A DNA stretch of 64,000 nucleotides from an uncultured Gammaproteobacteria bacterium (GCA_964474445.1 CAYYSJ010000006.1:14213-78212); one strand, 5' to 3'. Shown: positions 176 through 50,688, counted from the first letter of the stretch. The notes: a model not told the origin generated them from the sequence alone. Numbers and translations are program-made.

Positions 176-286
176 ATCTCTCCCTACTATAGTCTTTATT
201 CGTACGCAGGGTCAAGGCTTTCTTCCGAAAGCAGTGTTTCTTGCTTTTGCATCACCTTGCCATGCAGTATAATTATGTAGATTGTA

Positions 287-808
287 ATGCTAGATAAGGC
301 CACCCGCTTGATATTAGAATTACAAAATGTTTACAAGATGAAAGAAGAAGTATCAGCAGGAGGGGTTGTCTTTAGTACCCGTTTGGCAAACTCAAGGCAA
401 ACAGATTCTGGGCATAACCAGAATGACATATTTATCCTCGTTTCCAAGCATTCTGGACACCATGGATGGGTTTTCCCAAAAGGGCACGTGGGAGATAACA
501 TTCATAATGAATCCGCAGAGAGCGCTGCCCTTCGAGAAGTCAAGGAAGAGACAGGTATTACTGGAAAAATACTAGAGGCATTATCTCCCATTGACTACTG
601 GTATGAATTTAATGGAGAGAAGAGACACAAAATAGTCTTATACTTTCTTATGAGGTATGTTTCTGGAAATATTGAAGACCATGATTGGGAAATGGAAGAA
701 GTAGAATGGCTTCCCCTAGACAAAGTGGAAGAAAGACTTACCTACCCAGGAGATAAAAAAGTTTGGAGAGAGGCTAGAACAATAATGAATAAACACATAC
801 CCAAATAA
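287..808 (+). CDS. NUDIX hydrolase
   Basis: Nudix box GDNIHNE-SAESAAL-REVKEETGI matches G-x5-E-x7-REUxEExGU; 173-aa ORF. Confidence 0.8.
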   Translation: MLDKATRLILELQNVYKMKEEVSAGGVVFSTRLANSRQTDSGHNQNDIFILVSKHSGHHGWVFPKGHVGDNIHNESAESAALREVKEETGITGKILEALSPIDYWYEFNGEKRHKIVLYFLMRYVSGNIEDHDWEMEEVEWLPLDKVEERLTYPGDKKVWREARTIMNKHIPK

Positions 809-990: not shown

Positions 991-2241
991 CTACGATTCT
1001 GAGAAAATGCGTTCTGACTGAGTTTTCTTACGTGATATCCTCACGAGCACTCTTGCTCCAGCTCTGGTTTGTCTTTTTTTATTTGTAACTCTAAACCATT
1101 CGCCAAAATGTTGTTCTGCTTGTACTATAAGAGCATCACTCCCTGCCCTAGGCAGCAGAAAAAATTCTACAGGAGGCGTTCTTTTCTTCTTAGTGGGATC
1201 CTGTTGAAATCTATCCTGAGGAAATAGTGTTTTATTTTTATAGATAGTCCGACGAAAATTACCCTCCGCATTTAAAAATGCTGCCGCTTGCAGGGTAAGC
1301 AGATCTGGCACTTCGTCATCAGATTTTAGATCCTCCAGATTTAAACTTTCTGTTCGCTCTAACTTACGCAAGAACTGTTCTCCCTTATTCCAAGTAAACA
1401 CAGCTGTAACTAATTCTTTACGGGTTCCTTTACCAAGTGGTTTAAGAGAATCATCTGGAGAAGGAATTAACCTGTCAAGCGGGAATTCTTCATCGCCATC
1501 AACTAAATTATACTCGCCCTGTTGCACTCGATTACTCACATCCTGCACATCTTGCTCAGATAAAGGGTTCTCTGGATGTTGTCGGAAAAGTTTAAGATCC
1601 GCCCATTCAACACCTGCTTTCATCAGCAATTGATGCAAGTCTCCCATTTCTTGATAATCCCATCTACTCTTATCCTGAGTGAGTCTATCCGTGACAATAA
1701 GTGCCCGGGCAAGAAAATATTGTTCCAAAACTCGTTCCATTTTTTCAGGAGAAAGATCTGCCAAGATTTTCTGCATATCCAGTTGTGTTGCTAGACTAGA
1801 GGCAACTTCTCTCAATTCTTTTTCAAGATAAGGACGGTTTTGTTCCTTAAGATATACGATTTCCTGCCGCAATGACTGTTGTCGTTGTTGCGCTTGTAGT
1901 GCATCAGTAATGAGTTGTGTTTGTATCGCTGAATCCAAACTCTGAAAAAAATTTGATGCTCCAGGATCCTCCACATGCTGAAATAATTCTCTAAGATCTG
2001 CACTTCTTGTTCCATATTCTTGACGCTCATCATGTGGCAAGCTTGCCACATCCATAAGATTTGTGTAGACTTGTCCTGATGCTTGAGCATTGTGTAGAGT
2101 TTGACCTTTATATCTATCTACTTTTGCTATGCGTGATTCGATTTGAGCTGTTTCTTTTCGAGCACTTTTAAGACGTGCTCTCACGTGCCCTTCTGTCTCT
2201 GCTAGAGTCATTTTACTTTCTTCTACATTCCTTGCATCCAT
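991..2241 (-). CDS. Hypothetical protein, coiled-coil rich, with a very basic C-terminal tail
   Basis: 416-aa ORF with ATG start; Q/E/L-rich heptad-like segments; C-terminus KKRQTRAGARVLVRISRKKTQSER; no known motif. Confidence 0.5.
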   Translation of the reverse strand: MDARNVEESKMTLAETEGHVRARLKSARKETAQIESRIAKVDRYKGQTLHNAQASGQVYTNLMDVASLPHDERQEYGTRSADLRELFQHVEDPGASNFFQSLDSAIQTQLITDALQAQQRQQSLRQEIVYLKEQNRPYLEKELREVASSLATQLDMQKILADLSPEKMERVLEQYFLARALIVTDRLTQDKSRWDYQEMGDLHQLLMKAGVEWADLKLFRQHPENPLSEQDVQDVSNRVQQGEYNLVDGDEEFPLDRLIPSPDDSLKPLGKGTRKELVTAVFTWNKGEQFLRKLERTESLNLEDLKSDDEVPDLLTLQAAAFLNAEGNFRRTIYKNKTLFPQDRFQQDPTKKKRTPPVEFFLLPRAGSDALIVQAEQHFGEWFRVTNKKRQTRAGARVLVRISRKKTQSERIFSES

Positions 2242-2336
2242 AGCTCCTCCTATTATGACAAAAAGGCAAAAGAAAGCAAATCCACACTGCTTTTTTGCTT
2301 GACAATCAAGGAAAAATTAACCAAACTAGACATAGC

Positions 2337-4022
2337 ATGAAATTTCTCCGTTTATTTCTTCCAAAAACAGTGTTGAAATATTCCCCTTCCATTATATTTG
2401 GATTGGTAATTCTTTTTTCAGTAATTATGCCAAGTTTTGCACAACGAGACTATACCATGCCCAGTACCGAGACAAACGTACCTCAAAACCTTCATACTTT
2501 GACACAAGGGTTACTCCTTGATCTTCTATCTGCAGCGACTTGCCAACTTGGTGGTGTGGACTTTATGACACCAAACCATAAATGTCTTGTTTATAACTCT
2601 CAAGGTCGACTAAGCTATGCAGATAACAGTTCAGGCGTGGTTGGTTTTCTCACCAATGCAATCCAAATCACCTATACGCCACCACTTCATACCTCCTATT
2701 ATGTGGCATATCTTAAAAATAATTTTGGTCTTGTGAAATCAGCTAATGCAGCAGGAAACAGCGGATTTGATCAACTGCAGCCCCTTACGAAGATTTGGTT
2801 AATATTCCGTAATCTCACATACCTTCTATATGTGATTATTTTTGTTGTTATTGGTTTTGCCATTATGCTTCGAGCGAAAATTGATCCCCGAACAGTTATG
2901 ACCATAGAAAATCAAATACCCAAACTCATTGTTAGCATTGTTCTGATCACTTTCTCCTTCGCTATAGCAGGCCTTCTAATTGATTTCCTTTGGGTGCTCA
3001 TGTATCTTGTCGTTAATGTTTTTGCCGCAGTAGACCCTAATTTACTGCCCGGAAATATTATTAGCGGCATAAGAGATAACCCAATTGGCGTCTATGGGAG
3101 AATTCAAGATGGATCCGTGTTTGGCCTCGCATGGCAAGTTGCAGGAGCATTAAATGACATGCTCAATGTAATCATAGGGAATGCTCTTAGTGCGCAGCTT
3201 GGATCAATACCAGTGGGCGGCCTTTTGTCAAAGATACTTGCCATCCTACCGCCATTTATTATTACTGCAACACTCCCGTGTGTTCCTTCAGCACTGCTAG
3301 GACTTATTCCTGGCTCTAACACTGATTTTGGGAAATGTATTGATGGGAATATGACTGCACAGCTCTCCTTTCTTGGAGCAATTGTTGCTTACCTTATTGT
3401 CCTTGTTGCTATGGTCGTTGCACTCTTTAAAATTTGGTTTACCCTTATTCAATCTTATGCAATGTTTCTCATTCTTGTTGCAACAGGACCGTTATTTATT
3501 TTGTCTGGAGTACTCCCTGGAAGTAAAGTGACATTTGAATGGTGGTTAAGACAACTCCTAGCCTACCTGTCATCCTTTATTGTTACCCTTGGTATTCTTC
3601 TTTTAGGAAAAGTTCTTATGGACGCTTTTGGCAACAGTACCAATGCGTTTGGCCCTCCTCTTATCGGAGGACAAATTGGACAAGTAGCAACAAGTACTCT
3701 TGGCGCAATTATTGGATTTGCAACATTTCTTCTTGTGCCACAAGCACTGACAATGGCCCGGGATGCAATCGGTGCAACACCTATTAAATATCTGCAGGGG
3801 ATTGGAGAAGGACTTGGTGCAGGAACGAAATTTGTTGGTGGAGTTGCTGGTGCAGGATTCAGGAGAGCATTCCACGACAGGAATCTCCAAACTGGGCAGG
3901 GAGAGGGATTTGGTACTCAATTATTGTTGGGACGAATTGACGAAGCGGGGACCTGGAGTGGCAAGTCATGGCAAGGATTTTTACGAAGAATGGCATATGG
4001 CAAGATGAAGGGAATGAAGTGA
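2337..4022 (+). CDS. Polytopic membrane protein, candidate VirB6/TrbL-like T4SS channel component
   Basis: N-terminal signal/TM (MKFLRLFLPKTVLKYSPSIIFGLVILFSVIMPSFAQ), many hydrophobic helices, Gly-rich C-terminus; sits in the T4SS-like cluster. ATG at 2337 preferred over the track's TTG at 2295. Confidence 0.45.
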   Translation: MKFLRLFLPKTVLKYSPSIIFGLVILFSVIMPSFAQRDYTMPSTETNVPQNLHTLTQGLLLDLLSAATCQLGGVDFMTPNHKCLVYNSQGRLSYADNSSGVVGFLTNAIQITYTPPLHTSYYVAYLKNNFGLVKSANAAGNSGFDQLQPLTKIWLIFRNLTYLLYVIIFVVIGFAIMLRAKIDPRTVMTIENQIPKLIVSIVLITFSFAIAGLLIDFLWVLMYLVVNVFAAVDPNLLPGNIISGIRDNPIGVYGRIQDGSVFGLAWQVAGALNDMLNVIIGNALSAQLGSIPVGGLLSKILAILPPFIITATLPCVPSALLGLIPGSNTDFGKCIDGNMTAQLSFLGAIVAYLIVLVAMVVALFKIWFTLIQSYAMFLILVATGPLFILSGVLPGSKVTFEWWLRQLLAYLSSFIVTLGILLLGKVLMDAFGNSTNAFGPPLIGGQIGQVATSTLGAIIGFATFLLVPQALTMARDAIGATPIKYLQGIGEGLGAGTKFVGGVAGAGFRRAFHDRNLQTGQGEGFGTQLLLGRIDEAGTWSGKSWQGFLRRMAYGKMKGMK

Positions 4023-4031
4023 TAGATACTT

Positions 4032-7000
4032 TTATCCTCCAACTTTCAAGCCGCTAAATATCATTTTGAAAAAGGTTCCAAATAACTCTCGAGTTATGTC
4101 TGCCGCAAATCCCACAGTATCTCCCCCATACTCTCCGGCGTAGAGTCTCCACCAAGGATTATTAAACCAGAGCAAGTATCTTCTTATTTTACCTGTATCT
4201 TCTAATAAGCCCAATTTGGCTATTCTGTCCCATTCGTCTATTGTAAAAAAGTCGCGCAAAATCTCAACTTCTTCCCCGTTAAAAGCAACCGATCGTGTCA
4301 TGCTATTAAATAATCCTTGCAGCATTTCTATTTCATTTGCACCGTAATATTTTGCAATCGCTCCTTTTGCACGCCATTGTCTATGAAATCGGATTTGTTC
4401 AGCAATAATATATGCTAAAAGGTTTCGTGCCATACCTGTTTTTTTCCAAGCCTCATCCTGTGTCTTTGAACCAGTATCTGTTTCTACTTCAAATCCATAC
4501 ATTTTCATGTCTTGCACTGTTTTCCCAAACATAAGATCACGCAAGGACTGTGTTGTCATCTTTACTGACCTGTCAACCTTACCTCGATAACCAGGCTGAG
4601 ATGTGTATGTCCAGGTTCGAAACTGTGCTTCAAAATTAGGAGCTTGCAAGTCAAGCATGTATCGAATCGGTTTCCAGAATTTATCAATGAAATCCCAAAA
4701 TGCCGAGGTATCAACGGTTAATAGACCGGTTCGCGGATCTGGTGAAACAATTTTATTAAACTCAATCTCAATTTTATTAAGCATCTTAAAGACAGCAAAA
4801 GCGTTACTTAAGTGATCTCCGTAAAATTGAGACATGGAATTCTCGTAGAAATCAAAAGAAGCAATATCTCCATCTAAATTCATATTGTCTCCTGCACCTC
4901 CCTGAAGGATCTCCCGAAGAGTAGTTCCTTTACCCATATTTCCATATCCACTTTCTCCCTGCTTTTGCACTCTCATGCCTTCATAAAAAGTAAAACTAAT
5001 TTTTTTAATGCCATTTATCGTAAAGACATTCCCGTATGCATTCTTGCCTTCCACTTGTCCCTCTCTATATCTCCTAATATTCATTAATTTGGACCAGGCG
5101 TTAAATCCAATACCAATGACGTCATTTTTTGCAGTACTGCCAAAAATATATGCCAAGTCATACGCATGCATATCAGCATACTTTGCCTCAAAAGCTGACA
5201 ACTTGAGCTGTTTGACCATGGCTGCTCGAAGAGCATCTCTCACTAATGCTCTTGATCCTCCAACCTCCTTGATAGAGCCAAATATATTAAGAAAAATCGC
5301 ATCATTTGAATCCCAGCTTTGTTTTGAGAAAGAAATTGCAAAGTCCTCCAACGACTTTCTCCCCTCTACAAAATCCTTAAATACCCCATTACTTACAAGC
5401 TCCGATGTCATGCCATATCCTTTTCCTACCATTGTATAAAGGAATTCTCTTCTCAAATCTTGAGAGTTCACTCGGGATTTTCTTTCGAGTGTTAGTGCGT
5501 TAAGTTCATTTAATTGTCTTTGAAAGGTCTCTTTCTTTCCAGAATCTGTTGATTGAGAAATATCCTTAGCAAGATCTTCTCGTATTCGAGCGAGGACACG
5601 TGTATAGTCTTCTTGAGAAATTCCCCATTCAACAAACTTTGAGGGTTCCTTTTGCTTTGGATCTCCTTCAAGACCTTTTTTATCTAACAGCAGAATATCC
5701 AACACATCCACTTTCTCCCAGTCTTGTCTTTCTCTAAATGCACCTTTATTTTCTCCCTCTTTCTCTTGGATAAATATTTTATTTAGTTCTTCTGTTAGTT
5801 TTTTTGCCATGCCAAATTGATCAGCGTATTTTTTGTCAAGTGTAATACGGATAACTTCACGGTAAAACTCTTTTGCCCCCTCAGTCCCAAGTGATTTTCT
5901 AAAAAGATTTTCGTACTCTTTTTCTTTTCCTTGCTCATCAACGCCTTTTATTCGAGCTCCCTGGTTAACCTCTGCCATATAGTCGTATGCATTTAACAAG
6001 CGCTGAACTGCTTTTCCAACGGTTCCCTGAGAAGTATAATCGTTATTCTCAACCTGCCTATCAATTTCTCCTTTCCCATTATGTGTTTGTTTATCAGTGC
6101 TTCCATAGCGAAGAATCTTTAGCAAACGATCACGTCCCTCAGTTAATGCATTTGGCTTACTATAAATACTTCCCAAGACTTCTGATAATTTGTCCTCGGA
6201 TCCCATTGCCGCCCGAAAGTCAACAGCAGAGTTGTGAATAAAGTCAGCAAGATAAGGCTCATAAAGGATATCGTCCCGAAGCCTGTCATATGCAGCATCT
6301 TGACGAGAAACCTCACGAACTTTGTAAACTTGAACGTCCTTAGGTTTAGAAGGATCATTAGGATCATATTCTTCTGAGACTTGAATATTAGGAGCAGGGA
6401 CCTCTGCGACAACCCTTAGCTCTCCTCTCTCGTTTTCACTTAAAAGCCCAACCAAGACACGTCCTGCACCATCTTTACGCACTTTACCATTCTCGTCTGT
6501 TAGGACAACACCTTCTCTGTTATACCTTTCCAAATCAACTCGCCAAACTCCATCTTCTTTTTTTACTTCCTGATAAATTTCCGTAGTTCGTTTACCCCAA
6601 TATGCATCAGTACCGTATAATTCAATTAAGTAATATGCACGAGTGGCAGTTGGAAGCTGAATATCCTGCAATAGGTTAATTTTGCTTGTTGCGTTTAAGT
6701 CATGATAAAACCATACTCTTCTTCTCACCCACAAAAGTAAGTTGTCTTTATTTACACGCTTCTCTCCAGTTTCAGAATCAATAGTAATAAGCGCATGTTT
6801 TCCACCAACGGAGAATTCATCAGACACCACATCGGAAATTCTTTCAACTAAATCTTCCAAATTTTTGGGAGTACTATAAAAATCCATCTGCTCATCTCGT
6901 AACTTTTCGTACCCGTAATACTTTTTCAGTGTATTCCCCAACTCTAAAGTCATGAGTCGAGCTGCGTTTTTGTCCTGTGCGGCAACTGTTGTTATCTGTT

Positions 7001-7490
7001 CAAGGCGTTTTTTCAGCTCTACCATCTCTTGTTTAAGACCAGGCGTTGTTTCTAATGCTCTTTTTGCTTTCCAACCCATACCAATAATACCCTCTATCAA
7101 GTTGGTAAACTGTACATCCGATTTTCCTGATTCACGCAATTCTTTCAATAAACTCTCGAGATGTTCTCGAGGGGTTTTAGGCTTTGTAGTTTCATCTTTA
7201 TCTATCTGTGACTGCGCCTCTTTTGCTTTTGCTTTCATGTTATCCCGAAAGTTAGCAGGAGCGGGCTCAATGGTCGATCGTACGTTTTCTCTATTGGACT
7301 CTGTCCCCATTTCTTCTAATACTTGGGCCACTTGTTCTGGAGTTAACCTTTGTCCATTATTAAAGAATCCGCCTTCCGAAATTGGCTGCCCTTGTGCTTC
7401 GGGAGAGGATCCTCCACCATCTATTGCCATACCTTCAGCATAGCTATTTTGAACTCTTGATGTCAATGTTGGGTCAAATTCGTAGTTCAT
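4032..7490 (-). CDS. Large hypothetical protein (about 1150 aa), no TM, no recognisable catalytic motif
   Basis: Long uninterrupted ORF; first ATG at 7490 (track TTG at 7499); no Walker motifs seen; lies between the VirB6-like gene and the pilin-like genes. Confidence 0.6.
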   Translation of the reverse strand: MNYEFDPTLTSRVQNSYAEGMAIDGGGSSPEAQGQPISEGGFFNNGQRLTPEQVAQVLEEMGTESNRENVRSTIEPAPANFRDNMKAKAKEAQSQIDKDETTKPKTPREHLESLLKELRESGKSDVQFTNLIEGIIGMGWKAKRALETTPGLKQEMVELKKRLEQITTVAAQDKNAARLMTLELGNTLKKYYGYEKLRDEQMDFYSTPKNLEDLVERISDVVSDEFSVGGKHALITIDSETGEKRVNKDNLLLWVRRRVWFYHDLNATSKINLLQDIQLPTATRAYYLIELYGTDAYWGKRTTEIYQEVKKEDGVWRVDLERYNREGVVLTDENGKVRKDGAGRVLVGLLSENERGELRVVAEVPAPNIQVSEEYDPNDPSKPKDVQVYKVREVSRQDAAYDRLRDDILYEPYLADFIHNSAVDFRAAMGSEDKLSEVLGSIYSKPNALTEGRDRLLKILRYGSTDKQTHNGKGEIDRQVENNDYTSQGTVGKAVQRLLNAYDYMAEVNQGARIKGVDEQGKEKEYENLFRKSLGTEGAKEFYREVIRITLDKKYADQFGMAKKLTEELNKIFIQEKEGENKGAFRERQDWEKVDVLDILLLDKKGLEGDPKQKEPSKFVEWGISQEDYTRVLARIREDLAKDISQSTDSGKKETFQRQLNELNALTLERKSRVNSQDLRREFLYTMVGKGYGMTSELVSNGVFKDFVEGRKSLEDFAISFSKQSWDSNDAIFLNIFGSIKEVGGSRALVRDALRAAMVKQLKLSAFEAKYADMHAYDLAYIFGSTAKNDVIGIGFNAWSKLMNIRRYREGQVEGKNAYGNVFTINGIKKISFTFYEGMRVQKQGESGYGNMGKGTTLREILQGGAGDNMNLDGDIASFDFYENSMSQFYGDHLSNAFAVFKMLNKIEIEFNKIVSPDPRTGLLTVDTSAFWDFIDKFWKPIRYMLDLQAPNFEAQFRTWTYTSQPGYRGKVDRSVKMTTQSLRDLMFGKTVQDMKMYGFEVETDTGSKTQDEAWKKTGMARNLLAYIIAEQIRFHRQWRAKGAIAKYYGANEIEMLQGLFNSMTRSVAFNGEEVEILRDFFTIDEWDRIAKLGLLEDTGKIRRYLLWFNNPWWRLYAGEYGGDTVGFAADITRELFGTFFKMIFSGLKVGG

Positions 7491-7558
7491 ATGAAGCAAG
7501 TTTACTTCCTAAAAGCACACTTGCCTTGATATTTACCTTACAGAATTCTTTTGATACG

Positions 7559-8902
7559 ATGATACATATGGATTCCGACCATCTTGAATCACTCTATCCA
7601 ACAGCAAGTAGACAAGAAGAAATCACTGAAATTCTTTCCTACGTAAAAGAAGGACAATCTTGTCAATTGATTGCTCTGCCAGGTGTTGGACGAGGAAACT
7701 TACTAAACCTTCTTGCATACAATAGAGATCTTCGAATACTCCATTTAGGAGAGGAGGTATACCTCAAATATCATTTTGTGTTGGCTAATTTTTCTGAGGT
7801 AAAGAATAGATCACTTCTAGACATTATGAAATTTCTTTTCCTCGAACTTTCTTCGTCCTTGCATGAGAGGAAAAGAGACGAGGAATTTTTAGAGGTTGAT
7901 CAAATGTTTAAAGAAGCAATATCTTATAACGATGAATTAGTGCTTTTTCAAGCACTCAAAAAAGCAATTGAGTACTTAACGCTTGAGAAAGATATAACAG
8001 TTGTTTTTCTTCTTGAAAGATTTGAAACGTATGTACCACTTGTTACACAGGATTTTTTTAACAATTTACGGAGTATCCGAAATCGTGCAAAATATAAATT
8101 CTCTGTTGTCTTCTCTGTCACAAGACCGTTAGAGGAAATTCTAGAGCCAGCTCTTCTTGCAGATTTCTACGAATTTGTCGTAGATCATAACATCTATTTG
8201 CCTCTTTTAGATATGCCTGGTATCAATTTCCGTATCAGTTATTTAGAAAAACTGACCAGAAAAAAAATACCAGAAGAAATTACAAAAAAAATTTTAGAAT
8301 TTACTGCTGGACATGGGAAATTAACAAGACTCACCTTGGAAATTGCATGCTCAGATCGTACTGAAGAGCGACAAGTAAACATAATAACACTACTTTCCCA
8401 CAAAACCATTCGAGGAGCTCTATTTGAAATTTGGAATTTTCTTACTCCCGATGAACAAAACGATGTCTTTTCACTAGTAAAAGGAGACTCTGTTTCAAAT
8501 GCTTTTCTAGAACATGTAGGACTTCTCCAAAACGGACATGTCACAATTCCTCTTTTTGCAGATTTCGTTAAGAATTATTTGTCCGAAGAAGTTGCACAAG
8601 AACAACATATCTTCTTTAACCCTGAGACAAATAGTATTACCAAAGGGCATCAGATCCTTTCCGACATTTTAACAGGATCAGAATTTAAACTACTTCGTTT
8701 ACTGCTTGAACATATAGACACAATTATTGACCGCGATCGAATTATCCAAACAGTGTGGACAGATACAAAATCTCAAACAGGAGTTTCGGATCAGGCAGTT
8801 GACCAACTCATATTCAGACTAAGAAAAAAAATTGAAGACGATCCGAATAATCCTGTACATATTCAGACAGTGAAAGGTCGCGGTGTTAAATTTACTCCAT
8901 AA
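7559..8902 (+). CDS. Transcriptional regulator: N-terminal NTPase-like domain plus C-terminal OmpR/PhoB-type winged-helix DNA-binding domain, no receiver domain
   Basis: C-terminus LLRLLLEHIDTIIDRDRIIQTVWTD...AVDQLIFRLRKKIEDDPNNPVHIQTVKGRGVKFTP matches the trans_reg_C pattern; N-terminal LIALPGVGRGNLLNLL is P-loop-like; first ATG at 7559 (track TTG 7382 would overlap the upstream gene). Confidence 0.6.
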   Translation: MIHMDSDHLESLYPTASRQEEITEILSYVKEGQSCQLIALPGVGRGNLLNLLAYNRDLRILHLGEEVYLKYHFVLANFSEVKNRSLLDIMKFLFLELSSSLHERKRDEEFLEVDQMFKEAISYNDELVLFQALKKAIEYLTLEKDITVVFLLERFETYVPLVTQDFFNNLRSIRNRAKYKFSVVFSVTRPLEEILEPALLADFYEFVVDHNIYLPLLDMPGINFRISYLEKLTRKKIPEEITKKILEFTAGHGKLTRLTLEIACSDRTEERQVNIITLLSHKTIRGALFEIWNFLTPDEQNDVFSLVKGDSVSNAFLEHVGLLQNGHVTIPLFADFVKNYLSEEVAQEQHIFFNPETNSITKGHQILSDILTGSEFKLLRLLLEHIDTIIDRDRIIQTVWTDTKSQTGVSDQAVDQLIFRLRKKIEDDPNNPVHIQTVKGRGVKFTP

Positions 8903-8945: not shown

Positions 8946-9545
8946 ATGAAAAAGCTTTTCCTTTCCCTTGCCATGCTTCCTCTCTTTTTCGTACTTCCTC
9001 AACTGTCATTTGCCGGAGGATGCACTGATAATAGAAGCATCTGTGTAAATCAATCTCTTCCTTCAGGAGTCAAGCCAGGTGATGTTTGCGGAAACTCGAC
9101 GAATTATGTTTATGGTTCAACGTCAGTTTGCTTTGGCGGAGCTTCTCCATGTATTCCCCGTTGCGGACTTGGGGATTGGTGGTGCTGCGATCCAAAACCT
9201 GGATATACTCCGGTAAACAAGGGGCCAGCTGCTCCTCCATGCAACCAATCAGATAATGGTAATTGCCTTTCTGTTGAAACAGGTGTTGGAACGATATCCA
9301 CACAACCCGCAAACTTTGTTAATAGTATTTACAGGATTCTTTTGGGGCTTGCTGGCGGAGTAGCACTACTTCTTATTATTGGAGCTGGATATCAAATGAT
9401 GACATCGCAGGGAAACCCAGAGAAAGTCAAAGAAGCACGAGAACGTCTTACCTCTGCAATAGTCGGACTGCTTTTTATCATTTTTTCATTTACAATCTTG
9501 CAAATAATAGGAGTGCAAATTCTACAAATACCTGGCTTTAAATAA
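8946..9545 (+). CDS. VirB2/TrbC-like pilin-family protein with an N-terminal Cys-rich (10 Cys) extracellular extension
   Basis: Signal peptide MKKLFLSLAMLPLFFVLPQLSFA; Cys-rich segment; C-terminal core AGYQMMTSQGNPEKVKEARERLTSAIVGLLFIIFSF shared with the three downstream paralogues. Confidence 0.5.
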   Translation: MKKLFLSLAMLPLFFVLPQLSFAGGCTDNRSICVNQSLPSGVKPGDVCGNSTNYVYGSTSVCFGGASPCIPRCGLGDWWCCDPKPGYTPVNKGPAAPPCNQSDNGNCLSVETGVGTISTQPANFVNSIYRILLGLAGGVALLLIIGAGYQMMTSQGNPEKVKEARERLTSAIVGLLFIIFSFTILQIIGVQILQIPGFK

Positions 9546-9547
9546 TT

Positions 9548-9889
9548 ATGAAATTACTTGCATTGACAGTTGGTGGAGGTTCATCAGGAGAACCAACATT
9601 TACAATACAACCGCCCTCTGATCTTCTAGATGTTAGCAATCTTACATTAGATAGACTTATTCATAACGGTATTACTTTGCTTCTTTATGTAATTATTCTT
9701 CTTAGCTTTATTTTTGTTGTTATTGCTGGACTCAAATGGATACTTTCCCAAGGAGATAAGAAAGGGGTTGAAGAAGCGCGAAAAACATTAACATTTGCGA
9801 TAGGAGGACTCGTTCTCGCTTTTCTTTCATTCTTTATTATTAATCTTATTGGATATGCACTCGGTGGCATCCCCTTACTTGGCAGGTAG
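9548..9889 (+). CDS. VirB2/TrbC-like pilin-family small membrane protein (paralogue 2)
   Basis: Core GLKWILSQGDKKGVEEARKTLTFAIGGLVLAFLSFFII; two hydrophobic helices flanking a charged loop. Confidence 0.55.
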   Translation: MKLLALTVGGGSSGEPTFTIQPPSDLLDVSNLTLDRLIHNGITLLLYVIILLSFIFVVIAGLKWILSQGDKKGVEEARKTLTFAIGGLVLAFLSFFIINLIGYALGGIPLLGR

Positions 9890-9934
9890 ACACTTGACAA
9901 GGAGTAAAAATACCCATACGATAAAGATAATTCT

Positions 9935-10330
9935 ATGAAGCACTTAGCAACGTTTTTCCTTCCTTTTGTATCATTGGTCATTGTGCCACAAGCCTTTGCA
10001 GATGTTACTGTTAACACATGCCCCCCTGGAAACTTTAATGCGTTATGTTTAAATGCAACTGATTTAGGGAGAGTTATTGGGAATGGAATTAACTTTTTGT
10101 TTGTTGTTGCAGCACTTCTAGCATTTGGATTTCTTGTTCTAGGAGGAATTAAATGGCTTACTTCTCAAGGAGAAAAAGAAGGGATTAATAAAGCTCGAGA
10201 GACAATTGTTGCAGCAGTGGTGGGATTGATTATAATTTTTCTCTCCTACCTCATTGTTAACTTTATCCTTAATCTCTTTGTTGGAGTAAGTCTTTTCAAT
10301 CTTACTCTCCCAACTATTACCGGACATTAA
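9935..10330 (+). CDS. VirB2/TrbC-like pilin-family small membrane protein (paralogue 3)
   Basis: Signal peptide ...VPQAFA; core GIKWLTSQGEKEGINKARETIVAAVVGLIIIFLSYLIV. Confidence 0.55.
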   Translation: MKHLATFFLPFVSLVIVPQAFADVTVNTCPPGNFNALCLNATDLGRVIGNGINFLFVVAALLAFGFLVLGGIKWLTSQGEKEGINKARETIVAAVVGLIIIFLSYLIVNFILNLFVGVSLFNLTLPTITGH

Positions 10331-10351
10331 TCTTTGTAGCAACTAGCTCCA

Positions 10352-10690
10352 TTGCCTTTTTTTATACTCTTTGTTACGCTTTATCATATGTGGGGAACTT
10401 GTATAGTAAATGGCATTCCAACAATACAATGTATTTTCCCTCTCGTAAACATTATTATTAATGCAGCTCTTGGCCTTGTCGGCACTGTTGCAGTGCTCCT
10501 TATCCTTTATGCGTCTATCAAATACATTACTTCTGGAGGCGGAAAAAGCGCAGAAGAGGCAAAAAATATTCTTACCTATGCAATCGTTGGTCTTATTGTT
10601 GTTTTGGGTTCATTTTTTATTGTCAGGCTTATCGCTGGATTCACAGGTGTAGAATGCATCAATACATTTAGTTTCTTCAGTTGTCAATGA
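10352..10690 (+). CDS. VirB2/TrbC-like pilin-family small membrane protein (paralogue 4); start uncertain (TTG 10352 or ATG 10388)
   Basis: Core IKYITSGGGKSAEEAKNILTYAIVGLIVVLGSFFIV. Confidence 0.5.
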   Translation: MPFFILFVTLYHMWGTCIVNGIPTIQCIFPLVNIIINAALGLVGTVAVLLILYASIKYITSGGGKSAEEAKNILTYAIVGLIVVLGSFFIVRLIAGFTGVECINTFSFFSCQ

Positions 10691-11358
10691 CTACGATGAA
10701 GTCTCAATAAACCCTTCGTCATTCCTAACGTTAGGATATCAATAAAGATAGCAATCCCCAAATACCAGATCATTGACGAAAAAAGCAAATTCACAGAAGG
10801 AATTCCAACCCACCCTTGAATATAATTCCAAACATTCACTTTTAAAAAATACAAAAAAACAACAAGGACTATACAAATTGCTAAAAGACCTAAGGCTCCT
10901 TCCATGTCCTTTTTGCTCGAAAACATGGTATTACTTATTTCAAAAACGGCATACAGCAAGAGAAGTGTTTGCCCTGAGATAAGCTTGAGGTGTGGAAGAA
11001 AAAACCAAAAAAGAAGAAACAACATCGAAAGGCCAACAAGAAGTGGAGCAACACCAATAAGAAAACGCCTGAATGGATCTGTAGAGGCAATTGCAACACT
11101 GCCCATTTTCACCTCAGTACCTCGTATTTCAGGTAAAAATTCTATTTCTCCTGTAGGGACAAAAAGAATGCTTGCCGTCAAAAAATGAGAAAGCTCATGA
11201 ACGATAACCCCTGGTAAAAAAAGAATAGATAATAGCTGGATTACAATAGTCTGGTGTTTAAACATGTGGTAGAGCCATACAGACAAAAATTTTGTAAGCT
11301 GTTGGGAAAGAAGAAAAAGCACCACAAGCTCAACAAGAAAAATCCCTAGTATATACAT
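10684..11358 (-). CDS. Polytopic membrane protein with an intramembrane HExxH motif, putative zinc metallopeptidase
   Basis: VIVHELSHFLTASILFV lies within a hydrophobic helix; six or more predicted TM segments; convergent with the pilin array. Confidence 0.5.
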   Translation of the reverse strand: MYILGIFLVELVVLFLLSQQLTKFLSVWLYHMFKHQTIVIQLLSILFLPGVIVHELSHFLTASILFVPTGEIEFLPEIRGTEVKMGSVAIASTDPFRRFLIGVAPLLVGLSMLFLLFWFFLPHLKLISGQTLLLLYAVFEISNTMFSSKKDMEGALGLLAICIVLVVFLYFLKVNVWNYIQGWVGIPSVNLLFSSMIWYLGIAIFIDILTLGMTKGLLRLHRSH

Positions 11359-11483
11359 ACTCTTAGTATACTACCAACATTATTTAAGAAGGTAGGTTTC
11401 TGTTTTCACAAGATTTTTATGCCTAAGGCTGATCTATTTTGTAGGGGTTGCAATGAGATTTTTCACATAGTACGCTTTTGTAT

Positions 11484-12629
11484 ATGGATAATCACCCAAT
11501 CCCCCAAGATGTTACAAACTTCCAATTTCGTCTTATCGGAGATATGACAATAAAGCAGTTTGCTTACCTTGCTGCAGGTGTTGGTTCTGCTTGGATTCTC
11601 TTTGTTCTGCCTCTATCTTTTTTTATAAAATTTCCGCTCGTTGCTTTTTTAGGAGGGGGAGGTATTTTTTTGGCGTTTGTGCCTATTGAGGGGAGACCAG
11701 CAGATGCTATGATGTTATTCTTTTTAAAATCTCTTTTCTCCCCTACTCAATATATTTATCGACAATCTGGTGGTTCTTTTCCAACAACACCTGCTCCTCA
11801 GGACGAGAAGACTACGGTAAAACAGGAAGAGACAAAAGAGGAGAAAAAAGATGAGAAGGATGGAAAAATTCATTTAGAAGCATCGCCTACTCCTCTTGCA
11901 CAAACTGTGCTGCAACCATCACCGGTTGTTGAAGAAAAGAAAGAAGCTATAGAACAACCAGTAGCGACACCTCTTTCTGATGTTTCAACAGAAGAGACAT
12001 CGGCACAAGAGCTTGGGAAAGAAGCTGCAGAACTGGTAAAAGAACTTCAGGACGCAAAGAAGGAAGAGATACAAGCACAAGAAGGATCAAAAGAAGCAAC
12101 TGTTGCTCATGAAAAAGTGGCACAACTTGAAGATGAACTACAAACAATTCTTAAACAAAAACAAGAATTAGAAAAACAGCTTCTTGAACTAGAGAAGCAA
12201 CTAGCAGAAAAGAAACAACAGGTATTTACACCAAGCGCAGCACAAGATCAACCACAACAGACATCTCACGTTATTAAAGTCGCACCCAACCAACAAGCAT
12301 CAGTTGGTACGCCACTCACCAACGATGTCCCTAATCTGATCTCAGGTGTTGTAAAAGATCCTCGGGGGAATGTTTTGCCAAATATTCTTATCGAAGTAAA
12401 AGACAAGGATGGCAACCCCGTCCGTGCATTTAAGACAAATGGACTTGGTCAATTTGCTTCAGCAACCCCTGTTATCAGTGGCGTATATACCATTACCTTT
12501 GAAGACCCACAAGGCAAGCATCGCTTCGATGCTGTTGAGATAACTGCAAACGGGACAGTACTCCCACAACTGGAAGTTATCTCTGTTGACCAACGAGAAG
12601 AACTTCGACGTGAGTTATTTGGAGGATAA
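11484..12629 (+). CDS. PrgI/VirB3-like T4SS membrane protein with a long coiled-coil and a C-terminal beta-sandwich-like extension
   Basis: N-terminal FQFRLIGDMTIKQFAYLAAGVGSAWILFVLPL...GRPADAMMLFFLKSL resembles a PrgI-family TM hairpin; then an E/K/Q-rich coiled coil; C-terminus GVVKDPRGNVLPNILIEVKDKDGNPVRAFKTNGLGQFA. ATG at 11484. Confidence 0.5.
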   Translation: MDNHPIPQDVTNFQFRLIGDMTIKQFAYLAAGVGSAWILFVLPLSFFIKFPLVAFLGGGGIFLAFVPIEGRPADAMMLFFLKSLFSPTQYIYRQSGGSFPTTPAPQDEKTTVKQEETKEEKKDEKDGKIHLEASPTPLAQTVLQPSPVVEEKKEAIEQPVATPLSDVSTEETSAQELGKEAAELVKELQDAKKEEIQAQEGSKEATVAHEKVAQLEDELQTILKQKQELEKQLLELEKQLAEKKQQVFTPSAAQDQPQQTSHVIKVAPNQQASVGTPLTNDVPNLISGVVKDPRGNVLPNILIEVKDKDGNPVRAFKTNGLGQFASATPVISGVYTITFEDPQGKHRFDAVEITANGTVLPQLEVISVDQREELRRELFGG

Positions 12630-12631
12630 TC

Positions 12632-13288
12632 ATGAAACAACCTGCCCGACAAGCATCCACGCAACATTTTACAGAAGTCTTGGATATACACGATGAGATC
12701 GTTCTTCTCTCTGGAGGGAATGCGTGTATCATTGTGGAGGTTCAAGCTGTTAATTTTGCATTATTATCTGCTGAAGAACAGGATGCAAAAGTTTTTGGGT
12801 ACGCAGCACTACTTAATTCTCTTTCTTTCCCTGTTCAGATACTTATGAGAAGTAAAAAAATTGATATTATGCCATATATCAATTCACTTGCTGATGCGGC
12901 AACAAAAACAACGAATCCGAAACTTGCTGAGAATATTAATAAATATAAAGAATTTGTGAAACAATTGGTAACAACTGCAGTTGTTCTCGATAAAAAGTTC
13001 TATATGGTTCTCTCCTATTCTATGCTTGAGGAAGGAGTTGGAAGTATTACCAAGATTGCAAAAAACACTCCTTCTGATATGGATGATTTTTTTGTGAAAG
13101 CAAAGGCAGCCTTGCATACGAAAGCAGAGTCGCTCCTCTCTCAAATAGATAGAATGGCTCTTCGTGCAAAGATAGTAGAAAAAGATGCTCTTATTAACTT
13201 ATTTCACGATATGTTTAATGAGGAAGGAAGCCGTGCAAAGATACATGAAAGCCATGCTGTAACGGCAACCAAAGGAGGTGTTCACTAA
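12632..13288 (+). CDS. Hypothetical protein translationally coupled to VirB4; resembles a VirB4 N-terminal domain
   Basis: RBS GGAGGA then ATG; stop overlaps the VirB4 start (TAATG); segment ILLSGGNACIIVEVQAVNFALLSAEEQDAKVFGYAALLNSLSFPVQILMRS. Confidence 0.4.
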   Translation: MKQPARQASTQHFTEVLDIHDEIVLLSGGNACIIVEVQAVNFALLSAEEQDAKVFGYAALLNSLSFPVQILMRSKKIDIMPYINSLADAATKTTNPKLAENINKYKEFVKQLVTTAVVLDKKFYMVLSYSMLEEGVGSITKIAKNTPSDMDDFFVKAKAALHTKAESLLSQIDRMALRAKIVEKDALINLFHDMFNEEGSRAKIHESHAVTATKGGVH

Positions 13289-15114
13289 TGTTTGGGAAGA
13301 AAAACCCTTCTGCTCAACAAGTAGAGCAACCTCAACAAAATCTGTTAGAGAAAGGCATGCAGTCAATCCCTGATATTATTGCACCCTCATCTGTTGAGGT
13401 AGATTTTAAGTCAATCCGTGTTGGGGAACGATTTTATCGGACCTTTTTTATTGTTGGCTATCCTCGTTATGTATCAACAGGGTGGCTTTCCCCTGTCATT
13501 GATTTTGACCACTCTCTTGACATTAGCATGTTTATTTACCCAGTCTTTACTGATGACGTCTTATCTAATTTGAAGAGGAAAATTGCCGAAATGGAGGCAA
13601 CAATTTCTTCCGATGAAGAGAAGGGCAAGCCAGTAAATCCAAAAATTAACGCAGCGCTGAATGATGCATATGGACTCCAAAACGAATTAGCAAAAGGCAT
13701 TGAACGTTTTTTCCAATTTAGTCTCTATGTCGCTCTCTCTTCGGATGACAAAAAGGATTTAGAGGAAACGACAAAAAAACTTACCAGTACTCTCGCTTCG
13801 CTTTTAGTAACACCGAAGATAGCAACGCTTCAGATGGAAGACGGGTTTAAGACAATACTCCCTATTGGGCAAGATAGACTTTTCATCACGAGAAATATGG
13901 ATACATCCTCACTTGCTTCAACATTCCCCTTTACCTCCGCAACCCTAACACAAGATAAAGGGATTCTTTACGGAGTTAATCAACAAAACGGATCCTTAGT
14001 CGTTTTTGACAGATATTCTTTAGAAAACGCTAACAGTGTTATTTTTGGAAAATCAGGTTCAGGAAAATCATTCATGATTAAGCTTGAAATTATGCGCCAA
14101 TTCATGTTTGGGACAGAGGTTATTGTTATTGATCCTGAAAACGAATACGGAAAATTAGCACAAACGTTGGGAGGGGAATATCTGAACTTTTCAGCAATCT
14201 CTCCTATAAAGATAAACCCTTTTGATTTGGCAGGCGTCTATGAAGAAGGAGAGAACGAACTTGGAACAAAAATTATTTCACTTCGAGCGCTATTGAAAAT
14301 AATGCTTGGCAACATCACCCCAGCGGAGGATGCAATCTTAGATAGAGCCCTGGTAGCAACTTACTCTGAAAAGGGCATTACAGCAGATCCTGCAACGCAA
14401 TCTAAAACTCCACCTATTTTGGAGGATTTATACAAAGTACTCAAAACGATGCAAGATCAGATAGCTCAAGGACTAGCACTTCGTTTGGAGAAATATGTTA
14501 CCGGGAGTCTTGCAGGACTTTTCAACCAACAATCAAATTTTGACATTAAAAATCCACTCACAGTCTTTGCTTTAAGAGATCTAGAGGATGAAGTACGACC
14601 AATTGCCATGCATATTATCCTAGACTTTGTCTGGACACGTGTTCGAAAGACTTTGAAGAAGCGTCTTCTTATCGTGGATGAAGCATGGTATTTAATGAAA
14701 CATGAAGATTCCGCATCATTTATTTACGGCATTGCTAAACGCGCTCGTAAATACTATCTAGGACTCACTACCGCGACCCAGGACGTGCAGGATTTCCTTT
14801 CGAGTGATTATGGTCATGCTATCCTTTCGAACTCCTCTGTTCAAATTCTACTCAAGCAGAGTACTTCAGAAATAGAAACAGTTGCGACCACTTTTTATCT
14901 TTCAGAGGGTGAAAGGCAAATGCTTATTTCAGCTGGTGTTGGCCAAGGACTTTTTTTTGCTGGACAAAGTCATGTTGCCATACAAGTTGTTGCAGCACCA
15001 TTTGAGCATGAGATCATCACATCAAATCCTGCAGAACTACAAAGGCAACAAGAACAAACTTCTAATCAAACACAACCGGTTACAACTCCGCCTAATGCAA
15101 GAGGCATTCAATAA
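13288..15114 (+). CDS. VirB4/TrbE/TraC-family T4SS ATPase, Gram-positive (PrgJ/TrsE) type
   Basis: Walker A GKSGSGKSFMIK, Walker B RLLIVDEAWYLM, DPENEYGKLA, ATTFYLSEGE; RBS AAAGGAGGTG upstream. Confidence 0.85.
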   Translation: MFGKKNPSAQQVEQPQQNLLEKGMQSIPDIIAPSSVEVDFKSIRVGERFYRTFFIVGYPRYVSTGWLSPVIDFDHSLDISMFIYPVFTDDVLSNLKRKIAEMEATISSDEEKGKPVNPKINAALNDAYGLQNELAKGIERFFQFSLYVALSSDDKKDLEETTKKLTSTLASLLVTPKIATLQMEDGFKTILPIGQDRLFITRNMDTSSLASTFPFTSATLTQDKGILYGVNQQNGSLVVFDRYSLENANSVIFGKSGSGKSFMIKLEIMRQFMFGTEVIVIDPENEYGKLAQTLGGEYLNFSAISPIKINPFDLAGVYEEGENELGTKIISLRALLKIMLGNITPAEDAILDRALVATYSEKGITADPATQSKTPPILEDLYKVLKTMQDQIAQGLALRLEKYVTGSLAGLFNQQSNFDIKNPLTVFALRDLEDEVRPIAMHIILDFVWTRVRKTLKKRLLIVDEAWYLMKHEDSASFIYGIAKRARKYYLGLTTATQDVQDFLSSDYGHAILSNSSVQILLKQSTSEIETVATTFYLSEGERQMLISAGVGQGLFFAGQSHVAIQVVAAPFEHEIITSNPAELQRQQEQTSNQTQPVTTPPNARGIQ

Positions 15115-15131
15115 CGATATACTAATTGTAT

Positions 15132-16946: not shown

Positions 16947-16948
16947 CT

Positions 16949-17686
16949 ATGGATAAGAAACTTTTTATTATTGCTGGAGGAAGTACACTTCTTTTATTTT
17001 GTTTCTTTCTCCTTGTTTTCTTTCTCGCCAGTATAAAAGAAAAAAATGTTCATCCTCCGATTGAATCCCCAACCCCGACACCTGTAAAAAGTAGTCAATT
17101 TTTGCTTAATGGACCAAGCAGTACACAGCAAAGACCAGTCAAACTGTTATATTTTTCACCAGCAGATGGGGCACGAAATGTTTCCTCTCAACAAGAAATT
17201 GTTATCACATTTGATCAACCTGTCGCAACAGAAAGTGTCTCTTTTTCGATCTTTCCAGAATTGGATGTCCGTATTTCTTCTCGTCTAAACTCAATTATCA
17301 TTATACCAAATACCCCTTACCAGCCTAATATTATCTATACATACAGTCTATTCACCCCAGATAATACAAAAATAATTTCTGCTTCTTTCTCCTCAGGAAA
17401 TTCTCAAACTCCAATAAACCCATTAAAGGGGGATTATAAAAATACAGATTCACTCGGAGACAGTGCTCAACGAGAGAATTATCCTGATGTTTATTTAGCA
17501 AGCTTTACTCCGTATGATGGCACGAGTTTCTTTGTAAACAATGAGTTTGAGTCATCACCAAGCGGTCACTATATATTTGTGATGACGCAGAAATTACAGA
17601 CTGGAAAGAGTGATTTTTTTGATTGGTTGAAAAAGCTTGGTTTGACACAAAGTCAAATAGATCGCATTACTGTAACATATCAATAA
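16949..17686 (+). CDS. Hypothetical secreted/membrane-anchored protein
   Basis: N-terminal TM MDKKLFIIAGGSTLLLFCFFLLVFFLASI; S/T/P-rich; last gene of the cluster before dnaN. Confidence 0.45.
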   Translation: MDKKLFIIAGGSTLLLFCFFLLVFFLASIKEKNVHPPIESPTPTPVKSSQFLLNGPSSTQQRPVKLLYFSPADGARNVSSQQEIVITFDQPVATESVSFSIFPELDVRISSRLNSIIIIPNTPYQPNIIYTYSLFTPDNTKIISASFSSGNSQTPINPLKGDYKNTDSLGDSAQRENYPDVYLASFTPYDGTSFFVNNEFESSPSGHYIFVMTQKLQTGKSDFFDWLKKLGLTQSQIDRITVTYQ

Positions 17687-49833: not shown

Positions 49834-50682
49834 GTGTTAATTATTTATTCATTCATTGCTCTGTTCGTATTGTTCCAAACTCTTAGTAGTGCATTATCCA
49901 GTTGGGTGACAAAAAAGACTCGGTATGAGGGGGCATATACCGTTCTTTGGCAACTTACTAGTGGAGGTCTTATGTTTTTTACTTTGCCTTTTGTTAAGCT
50001 TTATACAAATTTTGATGTAAAAATCCTTTTAATTTTTGCAATATCTCTTATTTTTTGGGCGTTAACAAATGTTTTCCTCTTTAAAGCTTATAAAAATGAG
50101 GATGTAAGCATAATAACAACTGTATATCCTCTTTATAATATTATCGCCTTCGGTGTTACTGCATTATTTTTTGGTGCTAAATTTAATTTGGTAATAGTAC
50201 TTGGATTTTTACTTATCACCTTTGCCAGTTTTTTGACTGGTTTTTATAGAACTAAATTTAATCCATCAAAAGGCGTAAGATTTATCCTTTTAAGTGTTCT
50301 TTGCGAAGGAATTGCACTTGGACTTAGTATTCCAGTAACAAAAGTTTACTCAAGCTTTCTGTATATTGCAGTTGGTTTTACTGTGCCTGGACTTATAAAT
50401 CTATTTCTTTTTATCCGTCCAAAAATATCACACCTTGCATATGAATTAAGTAGACAATGGAAAGCAATTTTTATTAATGCAATATGCGTTGATTTGCTTT
50501 ATATATTCGAATATGCAGCACTTCAAAGAGGAAATGTCTCACAGGTTGTTTCGTTTGGTGAAGCTTCTACATTATTAACTGTTATATCAGGTATAGTGTT
50601 TTTACACGAAAGAAAGCATATAGCTATCAAGCTAACAGCGGCAATAATAGTAATAGTTGGAATTATTTTAGCTCAGCAGTAG
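49834..50682 (+). CDS. DMT/EamA-like transporter family membrane protein (about 10 TM helices)
   Basis: Two internally similar five-helix halves; GTG start. Confidence 0.45.
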   Translation: MLIIYSFIALFVLFQTLSSALSSWVTKKTRYEGAYTVLWQLTSGGLMFFTLPFVKLYTNFDVKILLIFAISLIFWALTNVFLFKAYKNEDVSIITTVYPLYNIIAFGVTALFFGAKFNLVIVLGFLLITFASFLTGFYRTKFNPSKGVRFILLSVLCEGIALGLSIPVTKVYSSFLYIAVGFTVPGLINLFLFIRPKISHLAYELSRQWKAIFINAICVDLLYIFEYAALQRGNVSQVVSFGEASTLLTVISGIVFLHERKHIAIKLTAAIIVIVGIILAQQ

Positions 50683-50688
50683 GAAGCT

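Follow-up and report, generated by a model that had tools for sequence, protein, structure and literature searches.

The window analysed here is a 64,000-nt stretch of DNA recorded as coming from an uncultured Gammaproteobacteria bacterium (GCA_964474445.1 CAYYSJ010000006.1:14213-78212), and all positions are counted from its first letter. It holds the gene cluster of a type IV secretion system (T4SS), and inside that cluster lies an uninterrupted open reading frame (ORF) of 1155 codons on the minus strand (4032..7499), which is the subject of this work. As the initial annotation had described, the ORF runs opposite to its neighbours, with a TrbL/VirB6 gene on one side and a Trans_reg_C regulator and four T4SS_pilin genes on the other, all on the plus strand. 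Sequence searches and gene order identify its product, below called the large protein, as a member of an undescribed, conserved family restricted to the T4SS clusters of one branch of Patescibacteria, the Levybacteria-type clusters. From promoter to stop codon the gene has the following parts.

7525..7556, minus strand: conserved upstream element, with a 19-nt box CTGTAAGGTAAATATCAAG at 7525-7543 and a weaker repeat upstream
7499..7504, minus strand: putative -10 hexamer TAAACT (TAnAnT in the family), 20 nt downstream of the box and 8 nt upstream of ATG 7490
4032..7490, minus strand: coding sequence of the large protein (1152 aa), closed by the stop codon at 4032-4034; TTG 7499 is as far as the maximal ORF reaches
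7179..7490, minus strand: N-terminal arm, residues 1-104, with a predicted local distance difference test (pLDDT) score <50; a peptide motif, then an acidic Gly/Pro-rich segment predicted to be disordered
6888..7172, minus strand: variable, coiled-coil-like helical region, residues 107-201; helices in the model, low conservation
6561..6878, minus strand: conserved block D1, residues 205-310, matched in 129/142 sequences
just upstream of D2, minus strand: variable beta-rich insert, residues 311-394
5811..6308, minus strand: conserved block D2, residues 395-560, matched in 130/142 sequences
4209..5321, minus strand: conserved block D3, residues 724-1094, the family signature, matched in 142/142 sequences
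4035..4157, minus strand: C-terminal tail helix, residues 1112-1152, Gly/Phe/Ala/Leu-rich, hydrophobic or amphipathic, ending ..ELFGTFFKMIFSGLKVGG

Translation most likely starts at ATG 7490 rather than at TTG 7499, because the TTG overlaps the -10 hexamer conserved in 16 loci and because the homologues open with MN(x)E..LT exactly like the ATG form. The NCBI-derived record of the protein (P0001) also has 1152 aa and is identical. The large protein contains no cysteine, and a motif scan found no Walker A, HExxH, HxH, CxxC, DxD or DEAD motif in it. It has a polar N-terminus and no signal peptide. The initial annotation, made by eye, had seen neither Walker nor HExxH motifs nor a signal peptide and was right on these points; the internal repeats that it proposed to look for were searched for, as were tandem repeats, and none were found. 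Its further statement that there is no transmembrane (TM) segment holds in part: no 19-residue window exceeds 0.98 on the Kyte-Doolittle scale, but the last ~30 residues form a hydrophobic helix rich in Gly, Phe, Ala and Leu.

An exhaustive HMMER scan over 1.84 billion representatives gave 141 matching cluster representatives at E<=1e-3, 115 at E<=1e-10 and 40 at E<=1e-30, so the protein is not the orphan it had been taken for. Members of the family are nearly all 750-2000 aa long, and every named one is a 'hypothetical protein' of Candidatus Levybacteria, of 'Patescibacteria group bacterium' or, once, of 'Saccharimonadales'; Levybacteria are placed in the Microgenomates group. Word-indexed searches with the full protein, with a 15-sequence profile and with a D3 profile returned only the large protein itself or nothing, and the impression of an orphan is an artefact of index-based searching. 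None of the curated-family thresholds was passed (Pfam-A 2025, NCBIfam 20, PHROGs 4, PADLOC 2), the best noise below threshold being DUF3213 at 16.8 bits against a cut-off of 27, and sequence and profile searches of the PDB gave no match above threshold for the large protein. Informative fusions were sought in six long members with nothing above threshold, no family member is fused to VirB6, and there are no paralogues in the neighbourhood. The large gene is not a mobile-element gene, because the searches of plasmids and phages (tblastn) and of viral contigs (scan) found no relatives. The suggestion of a novel component stands, the family being unnamed both in the libraries searched and in the papers that catalogue these clusters, and a protein that annotation pipelines currently label 'hypothetical protein' can now be assigned to a defined family.

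The association with the T4SS is seen in 24 related loci from genomes and metagenomes, about 19 of them non-redundant. Every locus has one intact copy of the large gene. Where the contig continues, the convergent virB6 is always the next gene (22/22 cases), with a gap of -4 to +20 nt in 21/22, and a NUDIX gene lies beyond it in either orientation. On the opposite side an OmpR-type regulator gene is found immediately upstream of the large gene in all of the 19 loci that extend there, divergent in 12 and co-directional in 7, and beyond it the pilin array, PrgI, TrsD and VirB4 follow wherever the contig reaches, in the gene order of the window. The virB6 junction is thus kept although NUDIX and regulator flip orientation between loci. 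The large gene lies within ~20 genes of virB4, in the company of VirB6, PrgI/VirB3-like, TrsD-like and VirB2-type pilin genes, and the T4SS link proposed in the initial annotation is well founded. Identity to the window is 22-33% for the large protein, 28-43% for VirB6, 44-66% for the regulator and 65-81% for VirB4. Six of the related loci (L003, L004, L008, L009, L010 and L012) are titled 'uncultured Gammaproteobacteria' and one (L005) 'Candidatus Eisenbacteria', yet they carry the full Patescibacteria-type cluster, and the VirB4 proteins of L004 and L008 are 68-81% identical to that of the window; these off-phylum labels (L003-L005, L008-L010, L012) probably reflect mislabelled or contaminated bins.

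The gene is real and it is constrained. In the two closely related genome pairs available, in one of which the synonymous rate is near saturation, the ratio of nonsynonymous to synonymous rates (dN/dS) is 0.055 and 0.068 for the large gene, compared with 0.112 and 0.087 for virB6 and 0.10 for the NUDIX gene. Purifying selection on the large gene is stronger than on either neighbour in these close pairs. Within the gene the ratio ranges from 0.01-0.05 for the conserved blocks to 0.2-0.27 for the N-terminal region.

The remaining genes of the cluster in the window are these.

2295..4022, plus strand: VirB6/TrbL-like polytopic membrane protein, 575 aa, Pfam TrbL E=5.9e-07, TM-like segments
8946-10690, plus strand: four T4SS_pilin genes (Pfam)
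10684-11358, minus strand: HExxH protein with about six TM-like segments, 224 aa, HELSH motif, immediately behind the four pilin genes and opposite to them in orientation
11478-12629, plus strand: PrgI/VirB3-like protein
12632-13288, plus strand: TrsD-like protein
13288-15114, plus strand: VirB4
15126-16946, plus strand: CHAP-domain protein, VirB1-like
16922-17686, plus strand: Big_5 protein, with dnaN and dnaA next

Profile scans found neither a coupling protein nor a relaxase in the window. The rest of the 64 kb is housekeeping, with rnpA, yidD, yidC, pgk, a class I aminoacyl-tRNA synthetase, ruvAB, dnaG and a sigma-70-family factor, and the GC content dips to 0.315 at 50001-52000 against ~0.38 elsewhere in the window. 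The 3' ends of virB6 and the large gene face each other 9 nt apart (4023-4031); in several related loci the ends, stop codons included, overlap by 4 nt, and no space for terminators is left. From this arrangement the two convergent transcripts would have to overlap, and antisense interference is possible. The 224-aa HELSH protein has no Pfam or NCBIfam match and is 47-69% identical in L001, L008 and L013; a possible role is that of an intramembrane metalloprotease acting on the VirB2-type pilins. The VirB1-like protein has a highly charged N-terminal region of ~370 aa, two TM-like segments and a weak CHAP match (E=2.3e-4, below the Pfam cut-off). Between tRNA-Ser (888-976) and virB6 lies an ORF for a charged, soluble protein of 416 aa (991-2241, minus strand). 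It matches nothing in Pfam or NCBIfam, and tblastn did not find it in any of the 24 related loci, in which the distance from NUDIX to virB6 is shorter; it has the look of an insertion specific to this genome, placed next to a tRNA gene.

One explanation of the locus is that the large protein has a cellular function unrelated to the T4SS and stays beside virB6 through conserved oriC gene order, as the NUDIX gene may do. The absence of any homology or fold link to a T4SS component would fit this, as would a promoter element of its own, not common to the pilin or VirB4 operons, and a region that is otherwise housekeeping (dnaA, dnaN, rnpA, yidC). The gene is however placed inside the T4SS set and not at its edge, its junction with virB6 remains intact while the neighbours invert or move, and virB6 is there on 22/22 contigs that reach past its 3' end. 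No member was found in a plasmid, phage or viral contig, and every organism-named one is patescibacterial. Nor did the searches assign the protein to a housekeeping family unlinked to T4SS, and we consider an unrelated function improbable.

The architecture of the large protein was derived from alignments, a 15-sequence one among them, and from searches of 142 sequences with a hidden Markov model of each block. D1, D2 and D3 are present in nearly all family members. D1 has the consensus ENFLxWxRxRxxxYHDFxPxxxINLF with N250, W254 and R256 near-invariant, and D2 has the motifs YExWL..SHNxDxxYR..MGxE and QGSVGKAxRR with E411, Y425, T450 and G492 conserved. A variable helical linker leads from D2 to D3, whose motifs are LNIF, YWTGISARNDTxGIGFDAWSK, YRLRQ, LQGGxG, GNAMRQFxxDH, WKxLRYxFD, ARNVFAYLIAxxLxxHR and FFxxxEW. 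Among 129 members the positions with at least 80% conservation include N250, W254, R256, E411, Y425, T450, G492, N735, N789, D790, D797, Y808, R809, Q812, H893, R943, Y944 and H1036. For the variable region of residues 107-201 the sole PDB profile matches are designed coiled coils.

The AlphaFold2 model of the full chain (15 sequences) has a pLDDT of 69 and a predicted template modelling score (pTM) of 0.71, with low confidence for the N-terminal 104 residues and the tail, and this pTM indicates that the modelled chain is one packed body. D3 modelled alone (31 sequences) reaches a pLDDT of 84 and a pTM of 0.85 and is mainly helical with three beta hairpins. The Foldseek comparison that the initial annotation had recommended was run on these predicted models and gave no significant match in the PDB: nothing at E <0.05 was found for the full model against PDB and BFVD or for the D3 model against PDB. 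Chains of RpoC and Rpb1 head the non-significant rows in both PDB searches, which is the only thing that could suggest a very divergent large subunit of a multisubunit RNA polymerase. We reject this match as noise (E 0.06-1, probability <=0.13, TM score <=0.13, root-mean-square deviation >20 A). Many of the rows are one protein deposited repeatedly, there is no conserved DxDxD metal motif, and D3, mostly helical with its three hairpins, is not a double-psi beta-barrel, so that such a polymerase is hardly credible.

The large protein might instead be a missing nucleic-acid-handling enzyme, such as a non-canonical relaxase, a nuclease or a translocase adaptor for DNA or RNA moved through the T4SS. 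The near-invariant Asp, Asn, His, Arg and Tyr residues of D3 could be taken for an active site, a NUDIX hydrolase is conserved two genes away, and the top, non-significant Foldseek rows are nucleic-acid enzymes. The cluster is without a relaxase or coupling protein (PMC12102498), and a 2026 preprint proposes that host RNA is taken up, possibly via T4SS pili (10.64898/2026.06.21.733656). Such an enzyme is nevertheless very doubtful, with no HUH, HxH, Walker, DxD or DEAD motif, no Pfam relaxase or nuclease match, Foldseek values of E >=0.06 and TM score <=0.13, and an Asn at Asp797 in the window copy. The DNA-processing function that the initial annotation had thought might be missing from the cluster is thus not recognisable in this protein, which has neither a relaxase nor an NTPase signature and no fold match.

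Four more specific candidates were tried and rejected. A type IV coupling protein (VirD4/TcpA) would need features that the protein lacks, as there is no Walker A, no N-terminal TM segment and no P-loop Pfam match in 15 members. A conjugative relaxase (MOB) is rejected on the absence of HxH, of any relaxase family in Pfam or NCBIfam and of a fold match. The surface adhesin suggested in the initial annotation falls for want of a signal peptide and a wall anchor, and a Gram-positive one of the PrgB type also because the N-terminus is polar across the family and no anchor motif or adhesin domain is present. A VirB1-like cell-wall hydrolase would have no lytic transglycosylase, CHAP or peptidase domain and no cysteine, in a cluster that already has a CHAP protein.

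Both ends of the protein carry conserved peptides. The N-terminal motif LT-x(6-22)-hydrophobic-M lies at residues 9-21 (LTSRVQNSYAEGM in the window protein) and is present in 60/121 homologues but in only 1.7% of internal control windows; the 15-sequence alignment has L9, T10 and M21 in every member. At the other end, in 69% of 89 homologues, no part of the protein is more hydrophobic than its last 30-40 residues. Gly and Phe are enriched about twofold in this tail, Ala and Leu are enriched too, and its hydropathy is TM-like in a few members, whereas that of the window protein stays below that level. We infer from these properties that the tail is a membrane-association element.

The main competing explanation, in line with the secreted effector that the initial annotation had considered, is that the large protein is itself a substrate of the T4SS, either a conserved effector or a translocator inserting into the host membrane, delivered by the epibiont. 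Its C-terminal helix would then be a secretion signal or a membrane-insertion peptide and its N-terminal peptide a recognition tag. The protein is large and soluble, has no Sec signal, is encoded inside a T4SS locus and has its conserved terminal peptides beside disordered or variable regions, and the G, F, A and L composition of the tail resembles fusion peptides or glycine zippers. It also diverges more over long distances than the other proteins of the cluster, ranges in length from 750 to 2000 aa, and has a faster evolving N-terminal region (omega 0.2-0.27). The lack of a relaxase suggests protein export or another non-conjugative role for the T4SS (PMC10633639, PMC12102498). Set against this, the core is under stronger purifying selection than virB6, the gene is strictly single-copy and in one position per locus while effector repertoires usually vary, and the C-terminal net charge is near zero (+0.7), unlike the Arg-rich signals of VirE2/VirF type. 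Known cytoplasmic T4SS substrates generally need a coupling protein. No such protein is linked to this system (PMC12102498). We regard export of the protein as unlikely, though a possibility to be taken seriously.

The promoter region is conserved as well. An upstream alignment (A4) of all 16 non-redundant loci that keep upstream sequence has the element in 16/16, with the consensus TATTGTAAGGTTTTTGTAAGGTAAATATCAAG followed by TAnAnT 20-21 nt on and by ATG after another 6-9 nt. TCAAG in the box and four hexamer positions (T, A, A and T) do not vary among these loci. The element itself has the consensus TTGTAAGG-TTT-TTGTAAGG-TAA-ATATCAAG, which are direct repeats with 11-bp spacing, the units being TTGTAAG, TTGTAAG and TATCAAG, one per 11 bp (TTGTAAG-N4-TTGTAAG-N4-TATCAAG). 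In the window the 19-nt box CTGTAAGGTAAATATCAAG is unique. Because the -10 hexamer sits 6-9 nt before the ATG, the mRNA of the large gene may be leaderless or nearly so, and the promoter looks activator-dependent. Sites of the OmpR/PhoB family have an 11-bp repeat geometry and replace the -35 element. Direct repeats with 10-11-bp periodicity by the -35 position are what is found here, and the repeats are probably an operator for an activator of the OmpR/PhoB type. The obvious candidate, from its adjacency, is the product of the neighbouring gene.

7559..8902, plus strand: adjacent regulator, 447 aa from ATG 7559 (447-506 aa), Trans_reg_C E=1.6e-18
281..325, minus strand: second copy of the box, TTGTAATTCTAATATCAAG at 307-325, with TACAAT at 281-286

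The adjacent regulator has a C-terminal winged helix of the OmpR/PhoB type, no receiver domain, and an N-terminal, degenerate P-loop-like LPGVGRGN; NCBIfam matches on it are limited to the C-terminal DNA-binding part. A second regulator of ~440 aa, which looks paralogous, is encoded at 33239-34561 on the plus strand and likewise has a C-terminal OmpR-type winged helix and no receiver domain. Both ~440-aa proteins (7559-8902 and 33239-34561) appear from their domains to be one-component regulators and not response regulators.

A scan of ~670 kb with a position weight matrix of the box gave 21 matches. Fifteen are directly upstream of the large gene, including four loci outside the matrix, five are by the NUDIX gene and point away from it, and one is a weak stray. 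The box is thus specific to the large gene and, in the subclade of the window, to one further operon. The second box of the window is of the NUDIX type and points away from that gene to one for a helical protein of ~120 aa, whose coding sequence begins at 175 and runs past the edge of the window; the same arrangement is found in L001, L008, L010 and L013, with a tail-anchored protein of ~650 aa coming next. In L001 (9965-12370) and L008 (15522-18083) this protein has an acidic, Pro/Gln-rich, disordered N-terminus of ~300 aa and a true C-terminal TM segment. Neither the ~120-aa nor the ~650-aa protein has a Pfam match. Judging from the two boxes, the adjacent regulator probably controls two units, that of the large gene and that behind the second box, and in both box-preceded units the encoded proteins combine a disordered arm with a hydrophobic helix at the C-terminus.

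We hypothesize that the large protein is a lineage-specific, membrane-tethered cytoplasmic accessory partner of the VirB6 channel in the oriC-proximal, Levybacteria-type T4SS, and give this reading a probability of roughly 40%. It is favoured because the protein has no export signal, a hydrophobic tail and a constrained core, and because its gene is single-copy and syntenic. The one-component OmpR-type regulator would bind the 11-bp direct repeats overlapping the -35 position and activate a near-leaderless transcript. The product would remain in the cytoplasm, as it has no signal peptide, with the Gly/Phe-rich C-terminal helix holding it at the inner face of the membrane. D1-D3 may form a single compact body, with a fold that has not been seen before, in which the near-invariant polar residues N250, R256, E411, N789, D790, D797, R809, H893, R943 and H1036 might form a catalytic or ligand-binding site, while the disordered N-terminal arm with its conserved terminal peptide could recruit a partner. 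At the cytoplasmic mouth of the channel the large protein and VirB6 would together serve substrate recruitment, gating or assembly, in a system that has no linked coupling protein or relaxase.

Several observations weigh against a partner of VirB6. By the position weight matrix scan no box precedes the pilin, PrgI/VirB4 or virB6 genes, and because it is missing there, the large gene is not co-regulated with them through the box. Over deep divergences the large protein is conserved less than any other protein of the cluster, with a median pairwise identity of 30% compared to 36% for VirB6 and 49% for the regulator. At position 797 of the suggested site the window protein has Asn (GIGFNAWSK; codon at ~5100-5102, minus strand) where 91% of 129 members have Asp (GIGFDAWSK), and at least one other member, P0007, shares the Asn. 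The amphipathic moment of the tail is a modest ~1 standard deviation above shuffled controls, and the hydrophobicity and composition of the tail sequence are a firmer signal than its amphipathicity. The family is also absent from the one patescibacterial cluster studied genetically, SEML1_0004-0019 of Southlakia epibionticum, compared by annotation (PMC10633639 Table S2), and the large protein therefore cannot be a universal core subunit of the patescibacterial T4SS.

A bolder idea, which we think improbable, gives the family the central, lineage-specific role in the working of the system. It would then be either a new kind of cytoplasmic enzyme that handles substrates in place of coupling protein and relaxase, for instance by processing host nucleic acid drawn through the T4SS pilus, or the main protein injected or inserted into the host envelope to open a conduit, in both cases with a fold absent from the PDB and a dedicated, anciently conserved pair of regulator and operator. 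Even short of this, a large and strongly constrained protein that is locked to virB6, has no detectable curated relative or fold match and comes with its own conserved regulator-operator pair deserves attention.

Patescibacteria have a chromosomal T4SS that is MPF-FATA-derived (Quinonero-Coronel et al. 2025, PMC12102498), and the cluster SEML1_0006-0019 is essential in S. epibionticum (Wang et al. 2023, PMC10633639). In that one species tested the T4SS is essential for epibiotic growth, and its cargo and direction are not known; the clusters have been reported to be without a coupling protein or relaxase (PMC10633639, PMC12102498). The window is alike in having VirB4, TrsD-like, PrgI/VirB3-like, VirB6, tandem VirB2-type pilins and a cell-wall hydrolase, on the chromosome by dnaA/dnaN, with no linked relaxase or coupling protein. 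It differs in the large-protein family, the regulator and the operator, none of which is described in PMC12102498 or PMC10633639. The large cluster proteins of S. epibionticum are VirB6-like membrane proteins and a peptidase, whereas in the window a VirB6 of 575 aa stands beside a separate, soluble protein of 1152 aa.

The proposed role at the cytoplasmic channel face, that of a membrane-tethered recruiter of substrates, is similar to that of coupling proteins and docking platforms (VirD4/TraG/TcpA; DotL-DotM-DotN-IcmSW), in a window with no linked coupling protein. VirD4/DotL-type platforms recruit substrates at this face of the channel. The large protein differs from them in having no Walker A/B, P-loop fold or N-terminal TM segment, so the likeness is one of function, and speculative, and not of membership.

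CagA of Helicobacter pylori and VirE2 of Agrobacterium are T4SS substrates of ~1100-1200 aa or otherwise large, without a Sec signal, partly disordered, lineage-restricted and encoded in a T4SS island. The large protein shares these traits, lying inside a T4SS locus, but has no sequence or fold similarity to either, and translocation would be a matter of conjecture. Strong purifying selection acts on its core, in contrast to the diversifying selection for which CagA is noted.

A large cytoplasmic body whose extreme C-terminus is one short helix, hydrophobic or amphipathic, as the sequence predicts here, is also seen in tail-anchored and C-terminal-helix proteins such as MinD and FtsA. There is no sequence relationship with these, and the helix of the window protein is below TM-like hydropathy; the probably co-regulated ~650-aa neighbour in L001 and L008, with its true C-terminal TM segment, comes closer to this type.

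The operator recalls the pho box, in which 7-bp direct repeats with 4-bp spacers replace the -35 element: here too there are 2-3 direct repeats with 11-bp periodicity, directly upstream of a -10 and with no recognisable -35, beside a Trans_reg_C gene. The repeat sequence is unlike that of the pho box, the putative regulator has no receiver domain and the promoter is apparently leaderless. The T4SS of Patescibacteria is already known, while the large protein, its pairing with a regulator and the operator are new, and large protein, operator sequence and regulator are three concrete handles on what the Levybacteria-type T4SS does.

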